Shown here: piece after piece, positions 935 to 29,676 of the stretch
How the letters are laid out: each line of letters begins with the position of its first letter
Numbering within the stretch: the stretch's first letter is position 1
IMG/VR virus record: IMGVR_UViG_2660238507_000002
Coordinates: 1 to 29,676 of that record
Direction: 5' to 3' (one strand)
DNA length: 29,676 nt
Source of the DNA: a virus
Taxonomy: Duplodnaviria; Heunggongvirae; Uroviricota; Caudoviricetes
Translations under genes and position numbers: made by a program
Notes under the pieces: generated by a model
What the model was told of the DNA's origin: nothing
The model's input: only the letters and a program-made list of their open reading frames with translations
The model's database searches: none

Positions 935-2620
935 GTGAATATAAACGTCGCCGAATTGTTAAATGGGAATTACATTCTGTTATTATTTGTGGTCCTCGCG
1001 CTTGGGCTATGTCTCGGAAAGTTACGACTTGGTTCGATCCAACTGGGTAATTCCATTGGCGTTTTAGTCGTATCGCTGTTATTAGGCCAACAACATTTCA
1101 GCATTAACACCGATGCGCTTAATCTTGGCTTTATGCTGTTTATTTTCTGCGTCGGGGTCGAAGCCGGACCGAACTTTTTTTCCATTTTTTTTCGCGATGG
1201 GAAAAATTACCTAATGTTAGCACTGGTGATGGTTGGCAGTGCGCTGGTGATCGCCTTAGGGTTAGGTAAGCTGTTTGGCTGGGATATTGGCCTGACGGCC
1301 GGTATGTTAGCAGGCTCTATGACGTCGACACCGGTTCTGGTCGGTGCTGGCGATACACTGCGTCATTCCGGCATGGAAAGCAGGCAGCTCTCACTGGCAC
1401 TGGATAATCTGAGCCTCGGGTATGCCTTAACCTATTTAATCGGTCTGGTGAGTTTGATTGTTGGTGCGCGTTACTTGCCGAAATTGCAGCATCAGGACTT
1501 ACAGACCAGCGCCCAGCAAATCGCCCGCGAACGTGGCCTGGACACTGATGCCAACCGTAAGGTTTATTTACCGGTGATCCGCGCCTATCGCGTCGGCCCG
1601 GAACTGGTGGCCTGGACCGACGGCAAAAATCTGCGTGAACTGGGTATTTATCGACAAACCGGCTGCTACATTGAACGTATTCGACGTAACGGGATTCTGG
1701 CAAATCCAGACGGTGATGCCGTGCTACAAATGGGCGATGAAATAGCGTTGGTAGGCTATCCCGACGCCCATGCCCGACTCGATCCCAGCTTCCGTAACGG
1801 TAAAGAAGTTTTCGATCGTGACCTTCTCGACATGCGTATCGTCACTGAAGAAGTGGTCGTTAAAAACCATAACGCTGTAGGTAAACGTCTCGCACAACTG
1901 AAGTTGACCGATCACGGTTGCTTCCTTAACCGCGTCATTCGTAGCCAGATTGAGATGCCGATAGATGACAACGTCGTGCTTAACAAAGGTGACGTTTTAC
2001 AAGTCAGCGGCGATGCCCGCCGCGTAAAAACCATCGCCGATCGCATCGGCTTTATCTCGATTCACAGCCAGGTCACTGACCTGCTGGCATTCTGCGCCTT
2101 CTTTGTTATTGGGCTGATGATCGGGATGATCACCTTCCAGTTCAGCACATTCAGTTTCGGCATGGGGAACGCTGCCGGGTTGTTATTCGCCGGAATTATG
2201 CTGGGCTTTATGCGTGCTAACCACCCGACCTTCGGTTACATTCCGCAAGGTGCATTAAGCATGGTGAAAGAGTTCGGCTTGATGGTGTTTATGGCAGGCG
2301 TTGGTCTGAGCGCCGGTAGCGGTATTAATAACGGCCTGGGCGCGATTGGCGGTCAGATGTTGATTGCCGGATTAATTGTCAGTCTTGTGCCCGTGGTTAT
2401 CTGTTTCTTGTTCGGTGCTTATGTATTGCGAATGAACCGCGCACTGTTGTTCGGCGCAATGATGGGCGCACGCACCTGCGCGCCGGCAATGGAGATCATC
2501 AGTGATACAGCTCGCAGTAACATCCCTGCGCTGGGCTATGCGGGCACCTACGCAATCGCCAACGTCCTGCTGACGCTGGCAGGGACAATCATCGTCATGG
2601 TATGGCCAGGATTAGGATAA
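935..2620 (+). CDS. ybjL: putative AAE-family transporter YbjL
   Basis: 561-aa ORF with GTG start, two hydrophobic membrane domains flanking a soluble central region; translation recognised as YbjL. Confidence 0.9.
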
Positions 2621-2732
2621 AACTGAAGTTGCCCTGAAAATGAAATTTTTTTGCACAACCGCAGAACTTTTCCGCAGGGCATCAGTCTTAATTAGTGCCA
2701 CTGCTTTTCTTTGATGTCCCCATTTTGTGGAG

Positions 2733-2855: not shown

Positions 2856-3074
2856 TCAAAGAGAGAGCGCCACCTGTCCTGATTTCATTGGATGCGGCTG
2901 AACCGGATTTGACTCTTTTGGCGTTGCAATCGAACGAACAAAAGTTTCATGGGTAACAAAAGTATGGCTGCAGTTAATGTTCTGGCACTGGTTGTAACGC
3001 TCTTTGGTCAATGAAGATACCTGAAAACTGCTGCGAGTATGGGCGGCACTTCCACACAGTGGGCAAATCATCAT
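2856..3074 (-). CDS. ogr: late gene transcriptional activator, Ogr/Delta/B family zinc finger
   Basis: 72-aa ORF with CPLC...C...C zinc-finger spacing and TKERYxQCQNxNC motif typical of P2 Ogr / 186 B; GGGGGAG RBS upstream. Confidence 0.9.
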   Translation of the reverse strand: MMICPLCGSAAHTRSSFQVSSLTKERYNQCQNINCSHTFVTHETFVRSIATPKESNPVQPHPMKSGQVALSL

Positions 3075-3165
3075 TTTTCGAGTTCTCCCCCATTTTTGCT
3101 AAATTCACAATAATGATACCGCATTATTCCATTTTGCAAACTTAAAAGTTCTCCATTGCGAAGAA

Positions 3166-4266
3166 TCATTCCATTTCGAAATCATCAATCCTCACTTCAA
3201 GCTCCAGACTGGTCGTAAAACCGTTATCCGGGCTGACGGTATGTGTCAGAGTCGTAATGGTCCATTCCGCATCATCTATCGGCTGTTTAAAACCACTGAC
3301 CTTCACAGGCATTTCCGTGTAGAGATCTGCCCGCCCTTCTGCCAGTTGTAGCGAAAATGACGCAACGCCGCGTTGCAGGCGTTCCCACTGCATTTTCGCC
3401 GCTCGTTCGGCGTTGCTCCGGTTGACATAAGTGCGATTAAGTACCAGCACGTTTTCATCCGTACCCACCAGGTAATCGCCCTGCTTCGCTTCCGGCTCTT
3501 TCTTCTGCTTCTTAGTCCTGCGCTTACGCTTCACCGTAGTGCTTTCTTTCTTCGCGGGTTCGCGGGTATGCAACCAGCTGGCAATTACGCCCGTATAGGC
3601 TCCGCGATCTGCCAGGGTAAAGCGGTGACTGTCGCCGTCCTTACGTGTGATAGTGATCACCGGCAGTGGTTTACCGCTGGCACTTTTACCCTGTCCCTGC
3701 CGGATGAATAACAGATTGCCATTTTTCACTGACGCAATAGCACCGTACTGGCGCGCCAGCCGCATCAGAAAACTGCCGTCACTCTCATTAGTCTGGTCTA
3801 TATGTTCCACGGGCTTATCCGACAGGTCTTTACCCAGTGCCATCTTCAGCTTGTGACGCGCAGCTATTTCCTTCACCACTTCCCCAACGGTGGTCTTGTG
3901 CCACGACTTTTCACGGCGGGTATTCAGCGTTTCCCGAAAATCAGCACTTCGCGCCCGGATAGTCAGGCGGTCCGGTGCGCCAGTGTGTTCAATCTCGTCC
4001 ACCGTGAATGCCCCTTTCGGGAAAAGCGGCTGCCCCTTCCAGCCCAGCGCCAGCGTAATGACCGCACCACGGCGCGGCAGCGCTATTTTTCCATCGGCGT
4101 CGTCCAGCTCCAGATCAAGCTGGTCCGCTTCAAAGCCCCGGTTATCCGTCAGCGTCAGCCTCATCAGGCGGTTATCCAGCACAGTGGTGATATCCCTGCC
4201 CTCAATACTGATGCTGAATGCGGGAGTTTTGTTGCCTTTGTTAAGCAGTTCAGAGCTGAAATTCAC
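3166..4266 (-). CDS. D: tail protein D (late control gene D)
   Basis: 366-aa ORF immediately upstream of ogr and overlapping U stop/start; position and composition match P2 gpD. Confidence 0.8.
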   Translation of the reverse strand: MNFSSELLNKGNKTPAFSISIEGRDITTVLDNRLMRLTLTDNRGFEADQLDLELDDADGKIALPRRGAVITLALGWKGQPLFPKGAFTVDEIEHTGAPDRLTIRARSADFRETLNTRREKSWHKTTVGEVVKEIAARHKLKMALGKDLSDKPVEHIDQTNESDGSFLMRLARQYGAIASVKNGNLLFIRQGQGKSASGKPLPVITITRKDGDSHRFTLADRGAYTGVIASWLHTREPAKKESTTVKRKRRTKKQKKEPEAKQGDYLVGTDENVLVLNRTYVNRSNAERAAKMQWERLQRGVASFSLQLAEGRADLYTEMPVKVSGFKQPIDDAEWTITTLTHTVSPDNGFTTSLELEVRIDDFEME

Positions 4267-4748
4267 GACAGCAGCCCTCCCACCGTTTTACTGATATCAC
4301 TTAAGGCAGATGTTGCCGTGTCCTGCAGATTATTCAGTTGCGTACTGAGATCACCGAACATATCGGACAGGGATTCATCCACCCGTTTGAGCGACAGGGT
4401 GAACTCAATCCGGCGCGGCATACCGTCGCGGAAAAACTCCGTTTTAGTCAGATTCAGTCCCTCAATCACATACATGCCGTAAATCGTGCCGCTGCCTTCA
4501 ATCAGGGGCCATGCTTTTCCCTGTTCTGCCATCTGCTCCAGAGCCAGCAACGACAGCCTGCCGCCCGTTATCTCCGGCATAAGAACACCAGAAAGCGTCA
4601 GCATATCGTTGTCCGGTCCCAGAAACTGCGTGGATGGACGACGGTTTACCCGGCTGTTTGCCGCATGTCGCCAGCTGCGTTGATACTGCAGTTCCTGATA
4701 CGGAACGGTGCGCAGCATAAACACGTACAATCCCAGCACCATCATCAT
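4263..4748 (-). CDS. U: tail protein U
   Basis: 161-aa ORF between T and D, size and position as P2 gpU; start overlaps T stop. Confidence 0.8.
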   Translation of the reverse strand: MMMVLGLYVFMLRTVPYQELQYQRSWRHAANSRVNRRPSTQFLGPDNDMLTLSGVLMPEITGGRLSLLALEQMAEQGKAWPLIEGSGTIYGMYVIEGLNLTKTEFFRDGMPRRIEFTLSLKRVDESLSDMFGDLSTQLNNLQDTATSALSDISKTVGGLLS

Positions 4749-5308
4749 GCGTCGTATCCCCCCTGATCGCTGTAGTTACTCCTGGCTTTTGCCTTCAGCC
4801 TGCGTTCACGTTCATCAAGCTGGCGTGCCACCTCCCGCGCAATATCCTGCGCACTTTGTCCTGGCTGCGTCTGAATGATGATCTGCGTCGGTGCCTCAAT
4901 CCGGTGAACGGGCGGCACAGTGGCTGCACGACTCACCATCGCTTCGCCGCCTTTCGCGGGAAGTGCCAAAGGATGCAACGGTGGAAGCTCTGCAGGCGCG
5001 GCAGCAACGCCCATCATTCCGGCAACAACGGCAGCCAGTGCAGCTGTATTTCTCCGGCTGGTCACATTTGCCGGGCCGTTAACAATTTCCGGCCCGTTTT
5101 CACCGACGATGCCAAACTGCCCGCGCGGGATATAGCCGCCGCTGTCATACATCCCCGCAAAGCCATATCCCCATGATGGAAAACCACCCGATGGCATCAT
5201 CACTTTAGCTGGCGCTCCACTGGCACTGCTGCGACGCGGGCTTGCTTCATCGGGCAACGCAGCGGGTTTACTTACTGCGCCGTTGTCGTCTTTGCGCCGC
5301 ACGGCATC
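4745..5308 (-). pseudogene. T: tail tape measure protein, C-terminal segment
   Basis: Minus-strand frame encodes tape-measure C-terminus (..SGGYIPRGQFGIVGENGPEIVNGPANVTSRR..IIIQTQPGQSAQDIAREVARQLDERERR..); upstream of about 5310 this frame stops looking like protein. Confidence 0.7.
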
Positions 5309-5980
5309 ACTGACGGGGAATGTCCTGAAAACTGTAGCAGGTGTGCCGGTTGCACTGTTGCGGTCTGGATTATCCGGTTTACGTGCTGTTGCTGTGATGT
5401 TTATGAATCCACTGGCAGCACTACGCGGTGGACTGGCTGCCGCAGGCGCGGTGCTGCGAGTACTGGCATCCGGTCCGCTGGCGATGCTGCGCGTTGCCCT
5501 GTATGCCATATCTGGTCTGTTAGGTGCTCTGCTCAGTCCGATAGGTCTTGTGGTTACTGCACTGGCGGGCGTGGCGCTGGTTGTCTGGAAATACTGGCAA
5601 CCCATCACCGCATTTCTCGCTGGTGTGGTGGAAGGATTCAAAGCGGCGGCAGGTCCCATCAGTGCTGCATTCGAACCACTTAAGCCTGTGTTTCAGTGGA
5701 TTGGCGACAAAGTGCAGGCGTTGTGGGGTTGGTTTACTGATCTGCTGACGCCTGTTAAATCGACCTCTGCCGAACTGCAGAGCGCAGCGGCAATGGGGCG
5801 ACGATTCGGGGAGGCTCTGGCGGAGGGGCTGAATATGGTCATGCATCCGCTGGACTCCCTGAAATCCGGTGTTTCCTGGTTGCTGGATAAACTCGGCATT
5901 GTCAGTAAAGAAGCTGCAAAGGCGAAACTGCCGGAAAGCGTGACGCGTCAGCAACCTGCGACGGTGAATGCAGACGGTAA
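5283..5980 (+). pseudogene. T: tape-measure-like coding segment on the opposite strand (apparent internal inversion of T)
   Basis: Plus-strand frame gives protein-like, tape-measure-like sequence (..LVVTALAGVALVVWKYWQPITAFLAGVVEGFKAAAGPISAAFEPLKPVFQWIGDKVQALWGWFTDLLTPVKSTSAELQSAAAMGRRFGEALAEGL..) while no minus-strand frame here is both open and protein-like; boundaries approximate. Confidence 0.55.
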
Positions 5981-7822
5981 CCAGGACAACGCGCTGCTGG
6001 TTCGTGTTACTACTGCCGTAACGGAAGGTAACGTTTTGATACCCAGCACAGAGAATCCCAGACGGATGACTGCCAGCGGCCCCAGCACTGCAGCCAGCGC
6101 CACCGCTAAGGTGCCGAGGCCTAGGGTAACCGCAGCCACAACAGCCGCTACTTTCATCAGTGTGCCTGTCAGTTCCGGGTTAGCTTCCACCCAGCGGCGC
6201 AACGCCCCCGTGATGCTTTTCACCGTGTACAGAATATCCATCAGCGGCTGGCGCAGCGTTTCGCCCAGGCTGCTGAAGGTATTCTGTGCAGTGGTTTTGA
6301 CCAGCAACCACTGCGCAGAAAGTGAATCCTTGTTAATGTCGGATTCTTTCTGCATGGAGCCGAGCGCATCATTGCCCGCTGTCAGTTTTAGCTGGCGCTG
6401 TAGTTCCGGCAGGTTGTTTGCCAGTTTCGCCGCGTCATCGCCAAACTCTTTACCAAACAACATAGTCATGGCAGACAGACGCTTGTCCTGCGGCAGTGCG
6501 TTCACCTTCTCCAGCACACGCTGGATAGTTCCCATCGCATCCTTCGTCATCTGCTTTTCAATCACTTCAGGATTGAGTTTCAGCAGATTCATCCCTTCAA
6601 AGAAACTCTTGCTCTGCATGGTGGCAATGGACAATTCACGCACCATCGCGTTTGCTGCACTGGCTGCAACCTCCGGCGCAGCGCCCAGTGTCAGAAAGGT
6701 GGAACCCAGCGCCGCCGCTTTACGATAATCCAGACGGTCCGCCACACCGCCCAGACGTTGCATGACATCAATAATGTCTGCCCCTTTCGACATGGCGTTA
6801 TCATCCAGATAGTTCAGCGCATCACCTAGCTGTTCAATATTGCGGGTAGGGATTTTGTAGAGCTGGGCGATTTTCCCCAGACTTTCTGACAGTTCATCCG
6901 CTGGCAGCTCAAAGGCTGTTGCCGCCTTTGCTGCTGTGCTGGCGAAGGCCAGCAGATCACGTTTCTGGTCTTCCCAGCTGTCGTCAGGGTTTGCGACGTT
7001 CATGCGCGCACCACCTTCAACCAGTGCAGCGAAGTCCACAGCACCGTTTTCCATCGGCAACTGTTCGCTGGCAGCCTTGATGGCATCCTGCATTTCATAA
7101 AAACGTGCAGTGCGGTTGCCATTATCGTCACGCAGACCATTGACCTGCTTTGCCACACCTTTCATGGCATCTTCTATGCTGGTATAGCTTTTTACTGCCG
7201 CCATCACTGGCGTCCCCATTGCCAACCCTGCAGCCGTGGTAGTGGCTCCGGCTCCTGCAATACGATCGCGCACCTCCAGCGAACGGGCATAACTGGCACG
7301 CGCCGCATTCATCCTGCGCTGAGCTTCCCCCAGTCGCTTCAGCCGCGCCTCCTGTTTCGACAGTTCCTGGTTATAACGTGATGTTTCACGGGCTAAACGG
7401 GCAGTTGCTCCCGCATCATCTTTCGCAGAAATTCCCGCCCGGTACAGTTCTGCACGCACAAGCGCCGTTTGCTTCTGCAAATATTTTTGTTGTTCTTCCA
7501 GGCGTTGGACTGCCAGCGTTTGCCGACCTAAAGCCACAAGGTGCCGTTGTGATGGTTGTTCCATCGCTTCCAGCTCAGAACTAAGCAAATTTGCCTTCTG
7601 TCTGGCATAGTTCAGCCTGTCGCCTAACTTTTTGTTATCGGCCTGCAGCTTGCGAAATTTTTCCAGGCTGTTACCCGCCTGATTGAGTTGCTTTAATGCG
7701 TCACGGGAGTTTCTGATTGCGCCAGCCAGCTCTTTCGAACTGGCCTGTGCAGCACGGAATGGGCGGGTGAGTTTGTCAACCGCATTAAGAATGACCTGCA
7801 GGCGCAGGTTATTATCACTCAT
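5948..7822 (-). pseudogene. T: tail tape measure protein, N-terminal segment (624 codons, ends at in-frame stop)
   Basis: Long Ala/Leu/Gln/Arg-rich coiled-coil-like ORF starting MSDNNLRLQV, followed by hydrophobic stretch; start overlaps E' stop (ATGAGTGA). Confidence 0.75.
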
Positions 7823-26735: not shown

Positions 26736-27254
26736 TCACAGCAAACCGAATGAAGCACCGAGGCCAGTCACGGTATCAACTGCACTCGCCATCGCAGGGT
26801 TAGCCTGTAAACGGGCCTGCAATGAAACAGCAGCCAACGCCATCAGTCGTGTTACAGAGTTAATGCTGCTGATAGCATCACGACGACCTGCACTGGTTTT
26901 TACATCGCCAGATACCGCACCTGCAGCAACACGCCCGATCTCTGCGGTTGCACTCATGACGTAATGTGGCAGTTTCTCTTTTGCCACCTCATTAATTGGT
27001 ACGCATGGCAGGCAGTGAATCTGTGCCAGAAAACCATCTACCAACGTTGAATCTTCAGTCAGATCGGTAAGCAGCCAGATTTCTGGTGCGGTTAATAAAT
27101 GAGGTTGAGCTGGGTTCAGCTTGTTCCGCAGAATCTGCACATTCATGCCCGCACGTTCTGCCAGTTGCACCAGATTGTGGCGCAGTGCGAATGCACGACA
27201 GGCTTCATCAAAATGTGGATGTTTGGAAACTTGGTAATCAAACATGGTTTTCAA
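26736..27254 (-). CDS. cII: CII-like lysogeny establishment regulator (186 type)
   Basis: Translation (..[43 protein letters not shown]..) resembles phage 186 CII; true start may be the internal Met. Confidence 0.75.
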
Positions 27255-27309
27255 CTCCGAACTTATCGCAAAATCGAACTCAGCGTCTTATTGCGAAAAT
27301 AGACGTCTA

Positions 27310-27513
27310 TTAAGCAGACAAAGCATCAACAGTCAGAGCAGCCAGGTTAATCATTACCTTTTCACGTTTTTTGTCTTTACGAAGACGATGACGAGGTAGT
27401 CGGCCATCAGCCAACATGTCGTTAATCGTATCAATAGAAAGGCCAGTCAGTTCGCTATAACGTTCGATTGTGACATGTGGTGTATTCAGAGTAATTGAAA
27501 TGTTAGGTGTCAT
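27310..27513 (-). CDS. apl: Apl/Cox-like excisionase and repressor of the lysogenic promoter
   Basis: 67-aa basic ORF first in the rightward early operon, divergent from cI; RBS AAGGAA. Confidence 0.7.
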
Positions 27514-27658
27514 AAGGCAACATTCCTTCTAGATATGGCTTGTGGCGAGCCGTTGTTTGTCGTGATTAGTAGTGAAGGCTCCAAAAGAACACTTCTGGTT
27601 CAACTTTAAGATCGCTTTTGGAATCTGTCAACGAATTTTGGATTTCTTTGGAGGACTT
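27514..27658. promoter_or_regulatory. lysis-lysogeny switch region (pR / pL promoters and operators)
   Basis: Intergenic region between divergently oriented apl-cII and cI-int operons; individual -10/-35 elements not confidently assigned. Confidence 0.5.
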
Positions 27659-28228
27659 GTGGATTTCAATAGCGGCGGTAAGAAAGCCATAGAACGTTTA
27701 GTTGAAGCATATGGGTTCGGTACCCGTCAGGCTCTCTGTGATCATTTAGGTGTTTCTAAGAGCACCATGGCAACGCGCTATATGCGTGATATTTTTCCAG
27801 CAGATTGGGTAATCCAGTGCGCCCTTGAAACCGGCACCTCGCTTAATTGGCTAACAACAGGGCATGGTTCAAAGCAAGCATCAGCAAATACAAATACTAT
27901 AGAAGTAGAAAAATATTTATTGTCTGATGGAGCATTGCAGAAAGACGGTTTTTATATTTTTGATAAGGAATTTCTACCCTCTACGTTTAAAAAACCTTTT
28001 GTCATCACAGATAACAATTCTGAATTTATTTGTGATAAAGAATTTGATGATATACGTGATGGTAAATGGGTAATAAGTATTGATGGCGAAATAACGATCC
28101 GTGACATTACTCGTTTACCCGGTGGAAGAATCTTCGTCGAGGGTGGAAACAGAGCCTTCGAATGCAAGATAGAAGACATTGAAATAATTGGTAAAATTAT
28201 AAGTTTAACAGTCAAGTATGTTAAATAG
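27659..28228 (+). CDS. cI: CI-like immunity repressor (186 type)
   Basis: GTG start preceded by GGAGGA RBS; N-terminal helix-turn-helix (TRQALCDHLGVSKSTMATRY); position between switch region and int. Confidence 0.7.
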   Translation: MDFNSGGKKAIERLVEAYGFGTRQALCDHLGVSKSTMATRYMRDIFPADWVIQCALETGTSLNWLTTGHGSKQASANTNTIEVEKYLLSDGALQKDGFYIFDKEFLPSTFKKPFVITDNNSEFICDKEFDDIRDGKWVISIDGEITIRDITRLPGGRIFVEGGNRAFECKIEDIEIIGKIISLTVKYVK

Positions 28229-28243
28229 TACCGGGAGGAAACT

Positions 28244-28435
28244 ATGCTTGGTAAGGTATTTTTTGTGGTTTTGTCATGTTCTTTGTTATTAAACCCACTA
28301 ACTACCTATGCTAGAAATTATCCCTGCTCAGGGAAAAAGGGAGGTGTTTCTCACTGTACCTCAGATGGCAAATTCGTTTGCAATGATGGAACTATTAGTA
28401 AATCCAAAAAAATCTGTACTAAAAACTCACGATAA
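28244..28435 (+). CDS. small secreted cysteine-rich protein (moron)
   Basis: 63-aa ORF with strong RBS GGGAGGAAACT, N-terminal signal peptide (..[10 protein letters not shown]), ~40-aa mature region with 5 Cys; AT-rich. Confidence 0.55.
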
Positions 28436-28623
28436 CTTTTGCTTTTATATCTGCGTCTAAAATAAAAATGAGCCGCAGGTTAACCGCAAAAGTTACATGC
28501 TCACATAGCAAAAAGAATAGCCAACTTCATTATGGCTTCAGTGAGATGTATGGTCGTAGGATTTCATACATTGACACTGGTTATACATACAGTAAAAATG
28601 CTCTCTACTGGAGGGCATTTTTT

Positions 28624-29676
28624 ATGGCAGTACGAAAACTCACCACAGGGAAATGGCTTTGCGAATGTTACCCCGCCGGACGTAGTGGGCGTCGTGTGCG
28701 TAAACAATTCGCCACCAAAGGCGAAGCTCTGGCTTTTGAGCGCCACACGATGGAAGAAACCGAAGCAAAGCCCTGGCTGGGTGAATCAGTGGATCGTCGA
28801 ACACTGAAAGACGTAGTTGAGCTATGGTTCAAACTACATGGTAAATCTCTAACCGCTGGGCAGCATGTCTATGACAAATTGCTGTTGATGGTTGACGCTC
28901 TGGGCAATCCCCTTGCAACCGATCTCACATCTAAAATGTTTGCCCACTATCGAGATAAACGCCTGACGGGTGAGATCTACTTCAGCGAGAAATGGAAAAA
29001 AGGAGCAAGCCCAGTCACTATTAACCTGGAGCAAAGCTATCTTAGTAGTGTTTTTAGCGAACTATCCCGCCTGGGCGAATGGTCGTATCCGAACCCACTG
29101 GAGAACATGCGAAAATTCACCATCGCAGAAAAAGAGATGGCATGGCTTACCCATGAGCAGATTGTTGAATTGCTGGCTGATTGTAAACGTCAGGACCCAA
29201 TTCTGGCACTGGTAGTTAAGATATGCTTAAGCACTGGCGCACGCTGGCGTGAAGCCGTAAATCTTACCCGCTCACAGGTGACCAAATACCGAATTACCTT
29301 TGTAAGAACGAAGGGGAAGAAAAACAGAAGCATCCCTATCAGTAAAGAGCTTTACGAAGAGATCATGGCGCTTGATGGGTTCAATTTCTTCACAGACTGT
29401 TATTTTCAATTTTTATCCGTGATGGAAAAAACGTCTATCGTGCTCCCTCGCGGTCAACTCACACACGTTCTGCGCCATACGTTTGCGGCGCACTTCATGA
29501 TGTCGGGTGGAAACATTCTGGCCTTACAAAAAATTCTCGGACACCACGATATAAAAATGACTATGCGTTACGCACATCTGGCACCGGATCATCTGGAAAC
29601 GGCGCTTCGTTTCAATCCTCTGGCAACGCTGCCAAGTGGCGACAAAGTGGCGGCAGCGGTTGGCATTACCCCGTAA
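28624..29676 (+). CDS. int: tyrosine integrase (P2/186 family)
   Basis: C-terminal catalytic region with R..HxxR..Y signature (..ARWREA..HVLRHTFA..IKMTMRYAHL); start taken at ATG 28624 (MAVRKL...); ORF-track start 28468 is an upstream in-frame start. Confidence 0.85.
   Translation: MAVRKLTTGKWLCECYPAGRSGRRVRKQFATKGEALAFERHTMEETEAKPWLGESVDRRTLKDVVELWFKLHGKSLTAGQHVYDKLLLMVDALGNPLATDLTSKMFAHYRDKRLTGEIYFSEKWKKGASPVTINLEQSYLSSVFSELSRLGEWSYPNPLENMRKFTIAEKEMAWLTHEQIVELLADCKRQDPILALVVKICLSTGARWREAVNLTRSQVTKYRITFVRTKGKKNRSIPISKELYEEIMALDGFNFFTDCYFQFLSVMEKTSIVLPRGQLTHVLRHTFAAHFMMSGGNILALQKILGHHDIKMTMRYAHLAPDHLETALRFNPLATLPSGDKVAAAVGITP

Follow-up and report, generated by a model that had tools for sequence, protein, structure and literature searches.

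What might a 63-codon gene be doing between the repressor and the integrase of a temperate phage? The question is posed by the right end of a 186-like Escherichia coli prophage, integrated next to rcdA, which is held in the IMG/VR record IMGVR_UViG_2660238507_000002 (positions 1 to 29,676 of that record were analysed; this whole stretch of 29,676 nucleotides is called the window). The gene lies at 28244..28435 on the plus strand, directly behind the gene for the CI repressor. A preliminary description had taken it for a moron that encodes a small secreted cysteine-rich protein, possibly with a role in lysogenic conversion such as that of a toxin. Family profiles assign its product to the YdcA family, and it is therefore referred to as the ydcA-like gene. 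The best explanation overall, to which we assign a probability of roughly 0.4, is that the product is an exported YdcA mini-protein which would act as a binding module in the cell envelope and benefit the lysogen by exclusion.

The window protein matched NCBIfam model NF007463 with 115.8 bits (cutoff 93), residues 5-63 being aligned to profile positions 1-58 of 58, and phrog_6000 with E = 1.9e-34. The Pfam family PF27300 (YdcA) is precomputed on its close homologues, and the identical RefSeq protein, WP_000900883.1, is named ‘YdcA family protein’. The search for homologues that had been recommended at the outset was thus productive: the protein is a member of the YdcA family, already known and catalogued in RefSeq, Pfam, NCBIfam and PHROGs. 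The equivalog model for YdcA of E. coli K-12, NF007462, gave 68.5 bits with the window protein and hence stayed under its cutoff of 118, K-12 YdcA (b1419) falls under NF007462, and NF007463, the model of the window protein, is a sister to it. The two proteins are nonetheless alike in consisting of a leader and a single four-cysteine domain of 30-31 residues; they are 57% identical over 53 residues, have the motifs PCSG.KGG..HC, F.CNDG and S.SKK.C in common and are both predicted to be periplasmic. Their genes differ in context, as K-12 ydcA is chromosomal, between rydC and hokB, whereas the window gene belongs to a prophage and lies in its repressor operon. In the literature, YdcA figures as a protein of 57 residues with unknown function and a predicted location in the periplasm (10.1101/2024.02.12.579971). 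Most literature entries under the name ydcA concern unrelated genes (a rhomboid of Bacillus subtilis, a methylase encoded on a plasmid and a gene from the gonococcal island). The UniRef cluster containing exactly this protein is labelled ‘Conjugal transfer protein’, a source label that is unverified. Two further family matches were discarded, namely a GULLO2-like Pfam match below threshold (E = 0.075) and a non-significant match (E = 0.11) to the lpg1681 family, for which the published account offered no usable link.

The open reading frame runs from an ATG start over 63 codons to a TAA stop and is preceded by the Shine-Dalgarno sequence GGGAGGA (28233..28239, plus strand), read directly from the sequence 4 nt 5' of the ATG, inside the 15-nt gap behind the cI stop codon. 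Its guanine-plus-cytosine (GC) content is 35.4% (29.7% at third codon positions), whereas int has 48.4% and the window as such 50.4%; the initial account of an AT-rich 63-codon gene with a strong ribosome binding site was confirmed. The window copy was compared with homologues from prophages of E. coli, Enterobacter, Yersinia and Hafnia, from the Haemophilus phage HP2 and from the Moraxella chromosome. The proportion of synonymous differences (pS) was 0.73-0.93, that is saturated, as against 0.03-0.16 for non-synonymous differences (pN) in the mature region. The E. coli B copy differs from that of the window by 11 synonymous codon changes and one conservative non-synonymous change (R24K). Since synonymous sites are saturated while the mature peptide is ≈ 83% identical, strong selection must act on the protein. 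The ydcA-like frame is a genuine, constrained protein-coding gene, far beyond chance, and its assignment at 28244..28435 is based on the open reading frame list, the family profiles and purifying selection alike.

Residues 1-23 (28244..28312, plus strand) are predicted to form a Sec signal peptide by hydropathy and the -3/-1 rule, from which the cleavage site was inferred. The leader has the n-region MLGK, a 12-residue hydrophobic core from V5 to L16 (maximum of 2.72 on the Kyte-Doolittle scale, averaged over 9 residues) and the segment NPLTTYA, which places T at -3 and A at -1 ahead of R24; the c-region contains a proline. These features bear out the earlier proposal of a signal peptide, as a prediction. 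In an alignment of 49 homologues, identity amounts to 29% in the leaders and 83% in the mature core, as would be expected if a leader is cleaved off and the folded domain behind it is under tight constraint. The predicted mature peptide (28313..28432, plus strand) is derived from the sequence and has 40 residues, a mass of 4.3 kDa, an isoelectric point of 9.7 and a net charge of +7. The precursor contains cysteines at positions 12, 28, 38, 46 and 58, but Cys12 lies within the hydrophobic leader, so that the mature peptide of about 40 residues, correctly foreseen in length, retains four cysteines and not the five first ascribed to it. A lipoprotein attached via Cys12 was considered and rejected, the criterion being [LVI][ASTVI][GAS]C preceded by an n-region with positive charge and a sufficiently long hydrophobic stretch: V-L-S-Cys12 is situated only 8 residues past Lys4 and does not conform to the lipobox rules. 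Homologues show LLIC, LLVC, LFVC or no cysteine at this place, and the conserved domain begins after residue 24. A Hok-like type I toxin, prompted by the location of K-12 ydcA beside hokB, was likewise discarded, as the conserved part is a soluble domain which is fused to enzymes elsewhere, and there is no overlapping antisense element.

The mature part comprises the YdcA domain (residues 28-58) with the spacing C-x9-C-x7-C-x11-C. All four cysteines are invariant in the homologue alignment, His37, directly before Cys38, is nearly so, and the invariant or near-invariant residues include P27, K32, C38, F44, C46, G49, S52, S54, K55 and C58. The AlphaFold model shows predicted local distance difference test (pLDDT) values of 87-90 across residues 31-50. 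A profile search returned 445 clusters (at 50% identity) with E ≤ 0.001, in which the domain is 30-31 residues long and starts at a median position of 29. Among 142 domains of 136 representatives, all but one show the spacing C-x9-C-x6/7-C-x11-C (second gap x6 in 117, x7 in 24), and the core is net positive in 133. A hydrophobic leader is present in 131 of the 136 representatives and a small-x-small site in 124. C-terminal tails are present in most of the family; of the 91 long ones, 71 are basic. The family motifs GG, CNDG and SxSKK are all found in the window protein, and identity in the mature domain stays at ≈ 83% among homologues that come from Gamma- and Betaproteobacteria of several genera.

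The genes in this part of the prophage follow one another as CII (CP76 family, minus strand), a Cox/Apl-like gene (minus), a 186-type cI (plus), the ydcA-like gene (plus) and int (plus). The repressor gene occupies 27659..28228 on the plus strand (Pfam Phage_CI_repr, 3.3e-31; Phage_CI_C, 4e-29), onto which the RefSeq cI coding sequence of an identical prophage maps, and it is the first cistron of the lysogenic operon. The tyrosine integrase at 28624..29676 (plus; Int_N, 3.2e-32; Phage_integrase, 7.2e-22) is the last prophage gene, and according to the RefSeq genome context rcdA lies beyond it in the host chromosome. In phage 186 the end of cI and the start of int share the same base, 22433, and the lysogenic promoters pL/pE read cI and then int. 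The overlap of cI and int marks the ydcA-like gene as an addition relative to 186; the slot, first said to be empty in P2, is therefore empty in a relative, the one in which this was checked being 186.

A scan for consensus promoters and terminators detected no terminator between cI and the ydcA-like gene; the same scan missed a hairpin before int (see below), the T-run of which is absorbed into the stem. Nor did it reveal any plus-strand promoter-like site upstream of the ydcA-like gene, where the 15-nt gap is filled by the Shine-Dalgarno sequence. Given the shared strand, the 15-nt gap and the lack of a detected terminator after cI, expression in the lysogen is the natural expectation, and the gene would be the second cistron of the cI operon. 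The placement in a cI-int operon thus stands, and the expression from the lysogen that had been stated along with it is to be read as an expectation from the layout. We hold identity, export and co-expression with cI to be very likely.

The ydcA cassette is present in 631 of 5,426 complete E. coli genomes (≈ 12%, about one in nine), and this type of cI in 638, giving a near one-to-one association. Identity is 90% or more in every copy of the cassette, but only 80-90% in 498 copies of cI. The cassette and its cI type are carried by E. coli B, BL21 and C. In E. coli B (strain C3029, 1773-4410), cI, ydcA and int are intact within a decayed prophage in which CII and the replication genes are pseudogenes. 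The low-GC tract extends beyond the gene, the C-terminal half of cI having 32.6% GC and the downstream spacer 36.7%. The label of a moron in the classical, stand-alone sense does not fit the ydcA-like gene: it has no detectable promoter of its own, is tied to one cI type and is better conserved than cI itself. As to the usual marks of such genes, it is absent from the related phages 186 and vB_EcoM-813R9; a terminator-like hairpin lies downstream, in a block shared with int regions of phages without the gene, and its GC content is lower than that of the window, as is that of the adjacent half of cI. This C-terminal half (27901-28228) was separately observed to contrast with its N-terminal counterpart (32.6% versus 45.9% GC), and it may have travelled jointly with the ydcA cassette as a single module.

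The same arrangement is encountered well beyond E. coli. Diverged prophages of the 186 type in Escherichia, Enterobacter, Yersinia and Hafnia have a ydcA gene directly behind cI, some of them with further cargo between ydcA and int, and two more P2-like prophages have it in the same operon, one gene farther from cI. In relatives, the cargo following ydcA in this slot includes a KAP-NTPase defence gene (PDC-S20, 1.3e-171; 5198-6529 of the loci concerned) and, in a Hafnia prophage, a gene for a 347-residue protein without family match (4247-5290 of its locus). Phage vB_EcoM-813R9 has a PD-Lambda-1 gene (3e-120; 822-2498 of its locus), like PDC-S20 a known anti-phage gene, in the cI-int slot instead of ydcA. 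The interval between integrase and primase in P2-like prophages has been described as a minor defence hotspot (PMC13586616). The Haemophilus phages HP2 and S2, which are distantly related Peduoviridae, contain a 60-residue YdcA frame in the same slot (NC_003315, ≈ 2489-2671, minus strand; S2 by the same coordinates) that is absent from their GenBank annotation. In HP2 the frame and the cI stop codon overlap, with the annotated pL on its upstream side and int on its downstream side in the lysogeny operon; its mature region is 73.5% identical to that of the window protein (tblastn), whereas the leader differs. Here ydcA is followed by a gene for a 254-residue protein with an OB-fold (PF12869) and an N-terminal leader-like segment, a gene that the window lacks. 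This HP2 orf1(S) (3112-3876 of its locus) and a protein of a related prophage (3190-3948 of its locus) are homologous (≈ 250 residues, BLASTP 1e-24) and both show the tRNA_anti-like OB-fold PF12869, so that a gene of this kind adjoins ydcA in two Pasteurellaceae-type P2-like prophages, once after and once before it.

A conserved two-gene partnership was nevertheless rejected for the family as a whole: the gene downstream of ydcA in Moraxella and HP2 orf1 are unrelated, and the downstream genes on small plasmids match only each other. The position in the lysogeny operon resembles that of genes of the lambda rexAB type, in that an accessory gene lies inside the repressor transcript and is hence expected to be expressed in the lysogen. 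The lambda rexAB genes are lysogenic-conversion and exclusion genes, co-transcribed with the phage repressor. Neither in sequence nor in structure is the window protein related to a known exclusion protein.

Mobile elements of other kinds carry the family too, with homologues on at least 534 IMG/VR contigs and on 58 plasmids. Phages of Moraxella, Acinetobacter and Pseudomonas encode YdcA homologues, which in those of Moraxella and Acinetobacter are found in late regions. In Moraxella phage Mcat28 (3433-3624) we noted a YdcA frame without a proper leader and, just upstream in another frame, a leader-like N-terminus; this split suggests a frameshift or a sequencing error. The plasmids include the 4.07-kb pGFJ6 and the 5.37-kb pA40P1, both from Moraxellaceae, on which ydcA is among very few cargo genes. 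On pGFJ6 (4,066 bp, 640-1609) and pA40P1 (5,371 bp, 2932-4091) it is followed by genes for homologous membrane-anchored proteins (E = 2.6e-8), and the pair possibly constitutes a two-gene cassette. On pGFJ6 ydcA adjoins a gene annotated TraD, and on pA40P1 a lipoprotein gene is immediately upstream, and farther upstream the opposite strand carries a MobA/MobL gene. Chromosomal copies outside mobile elements comprise K-12 ydcA, a copy in Moraxella bovoculi and a set of contigs in which the gene is near dsbC. In the 150 best representatives, the domain recurs with one kind of enzyme only, namely secreted nucleases, whose three folds are unrelated (Endonuclease_NS in three, SNase in one and PLDc_2 in one), and the inspected fusions are laid out as leader, YdcA domain, linker and nuclease. 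Tandem YdcA repeats exist, as does one fusion to VasL of type VI secretion.

A structural search with Foldseek pointed to Dis2 of the Dot/Icm apparatus for type IV secretion in Legionella pneumophila (Lpg0823, PDB 7MUC/7MUD) with a probability of 0.94 and 38% identity, and the family profile, when run against the PDB, found the same protein (7MUC chain AN) at E = 3.4e-4 with both lobes aligned. A comparison with hhalign gave E = 1.7e-4 against a near-identical truncated Dis2 homologue, which itself carries a PF27300 match; a search with a 46-residue fragment of Dis2 recovered two truncated homologues only. The lobes of Dis2 share the motif CCSK.GG(I/V)..C...G..VCN(D/N)G..S, and Dis2 also starts with a leader. 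It differs in being a stoichiometric secretion-machine subunit of two lobes with 10 cysteines, whereas the window protein is a single domain. According to the published structure, Dis2 is a periplasmic component of the Dot/Icm core, adjoining the outer membrane, with two similar lobes and five disulfides (PMC8486379). It has been reported to be Legionella-specific and without structural homologues (PMC8486379, PMC12716638), to be dispensable and without known function, and to contact DotK, DotC and DotD near the outer membrane (PMC12716638). Dis2 appears to be built from two YdcA-like lobes, and a relationship between the two is probable but weak; it would relate YdcA to a secretion subunit described in the literature as homologue-free. 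No type IV secretion genes were found in the window region or in related prophages.

On these grounds the following role is proposed. The precursor would be made whenever the CI repressor is made, as the second cistron of the cI operon, and would be exported by Sec and cut by signal peptidase I after Ala23. In the periplasm, the basic 40-residue peptide would fold around two disulfides between its four invariant cysteines, as judged from the sequence and the lobes of Dis2. It would then represent a small binding module of the envelope, neither an enzyme nor a diffusible toxin, an assignment to which we give about an even chance. The preferred target may be a polyanion such as DNA or, alternatively, an outer-membrane-proximal machine that translocates DNA or protein. 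The nuclease fusions, the basic charge and the pairing with an OB-fold protein favour the polyanion, while the link to Dis2 favours docking on outer-membrane-proximal machinery. Carriage in an immunity operon, in a slot used by defence genes, and on tiny plasmids suggests a benefit tied to incoming DNA; the lysogen would be protected from foreign DNA by a mechanism of the superinfection- or entry-exclusion type. That the peptide acts specifically against incoming DNA or phage is, however, unlikely. A wider proposition, namely that the YdcA domain is an unrecognised periplasmic module which binds DNA or docks on translocating envelope machines, as the distantly related Dis2 does in the Dot/Icm core, and which phages would place in the repressor operon and small plasmids would carry as a minimal one-domain exclusion factor against superinfecting phage, conjugation or transformation, is decidedly speculative and in our view improbable. 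If it were true, an exclusion peptide of the envelope, hitherto uncharacterised, would be expressed by 12% of complete E. coli genomes, among them B, BL21 and C.

Several observations weigh against this proposal. The ydcA-like protein had no match in PADLOC at E ≤ 0.01, a database in which neighbouring cargo of relatives matched PDC-S20 and PD-Lambda-1 strongly. The chromosomal copies outside mobile elements (K-12, Moraxella bovoculi, near dsbC) make it unlikely that a purely anti-phage role is ancestral. The nuclease fusions are just five among the 150 representatives and could equally mean anchoring in the envelope instead of DNA binding. The similarity to Dis2 is weak (E ≈ 1e-4 over 21-46 aligned residues), and Dis2 itself is without known function. 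Finally, the only published phenotype of the family points to envelope and stress physiology, a ydcA deletion in E. coli W being sensitive to 3-hydroxypropionate (300 mM) and ydcA being reported as induced by acid under YdcI (PMC7642389). It is this last finding that supports the main rival explanation, which holds that the prophage copy is an envelope-stress fitness factor, acting like chromosomal YdcA in tolerance to acid or organic acids, so that lysogens grow better in the gut and exclusion plays no part. The 57% identity between the window protein and K-12 YdcA speaks for this, as does the survival of an intact gene in the decayed prophage of E. coli B, which fits a gene beneficial to the host. 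The phenotype is, however, a single growth effect from one study and comes with no mechanism. A stress role also leaves unexplained the nuclease fusions, the resemblance to Dis2 and the carriage by phages and tiny plasmids of many genera, and a host that already has ydcA would gain little from a paralogue unless its expression differs. We consider this explanation rather unlikely, yet the foremost of the competing ones. The peptide might instead be an accessory subunit of an outer-membrane-proximal complex, docking on outer-membrane lipoproteins or an OmpA-like protein and thereby altering a host envelope machine with no binding of nucleic acids. Such a function would agree with the resemblance, in sequence as well as fold, to one of the Dis2 lobes and with the contacts of Dis2 to DotK, DotC and DotD near the outer membrane (PMC12716638), and the neighbours of ydcA on the plasmids (the TraD-annotated gene of pGFJ6, the lipoprotein and MobA/MobL genes of pA40P1) can be read in its favour, as can the unverified UniRef label. 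It is quite improbable, considering that type IV secretion genes are missing from the window and related prophages, that no partner was identified, that the similarity to Dis2 is marginal and that Dis2 is dispensable and without a known function.

A secreted antimicrobial peptide or toxin, cationic, cysteine-stabilised and defensin-like, which lysogens release against competitors, comes closest to what had originally been envisaged, and the size of 40 residues, the four cysteines, the net charge of +7 and the isoelectric point of 9.7 would suit it; the membrane-anchored proteins encoded downstream on the two small plasmids could in principle be immunity proteins. In the window, however, cI and int are its sole neighbours, with no adjoining gene for immunity, export or lysis, and a Sec leader reaches no farther than the periplasm. 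Of the term ‘secreted’, the export leader therefore holds, whereas passage across the outer membrane is unlikely, as nothing nearby would carry the peptide, and the periplasm is its most likely location. Toxins aimed at competitors tend to diversify, whereas the mature sequence is extremely conserved. The domain, moreover, serves as the N-terminal module of larger enzymes, in tandem repeats and in a structural subunit of a secretion machine, and single, non-mobile chromosomal copies such as K-12 ydcA are found in housekeeping contexts. The toxin is accordingly very improbable as an explanation. Of similarly slight, indeed the least, probability is a periplasmic mini-protein active towards metals or in redox reactions, whose four cysteines and His37 would bind a metal or relay thiol-disulfide exchange. 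The four invariant cysteines, the nearly invariant histidine before Cys38, one set of chromosomal homologues two genes away from a DsbC-like gene and the weak, non-significant match to lpg1681, a family linked to DsbD2 and redox-active homogentisic acid, led us to consider it. The lobes of Dis2, on the other hand, show structural disulfides and not metal sites, a CxxC motif is lacking, and the genes that surround family members elsewhere have no relation to metal or redox functions. The exported envelope binding module thus remains the preferred reading. The gene itself is not new; its interest lies in the presence of a conserved exported domain in the lysogeny operons of many 186- and HP2-like prophages, on small plasmids and in nuclease fusions, and the family is a good candidate, and one that is easy to test, for a new function that mobile elements exert at the envelope.

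The 188-nt spacer from the ydcA-like gene to int (28436..28623, plus strand) is strongly structured as RNA, with a minimum free energy of -59.5 kcal/mol (z = -5.2). No Rfam family was matched in the region 27200-29000, where a Phe-leader match with E = 0.88 is attributable to chance. The promoter scan recorded two sites worth mentioning, although the number of promoter-like sites was not above chance expectation: TTAACA-17-TATAAT (11/12 matches) at 28224-28196 on the minus strand, directed antisense into the 3' end of cI, and TTGACA-17-AAAAAT at 28571-28599 on the plus strand, just upstream of int. The latter overlaps a terminator-like 13-bp hairpin with a U-run directly before the int ATG (28594..28622, plus strand; -17.5 kcal/mol, z = -5.45). 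Its arms AAAAAUGCUCUCU and GGAGGGCAUUUUU enclose the loop ACU, the U-run stops one base short of the int ATG, and the Shine-Dalgarno sequence of int, GGAGG (28610-28614), is buried in the 3' arm. This hairpin is identical in E. coli B and lies within a block common to the int regions of Klebsiella phages, which also occurs in int regions of phages without a ydcA-like gene. Its appearance is that of a terminator and/or an element occluding translation, which would hold int expression low in lysogens.

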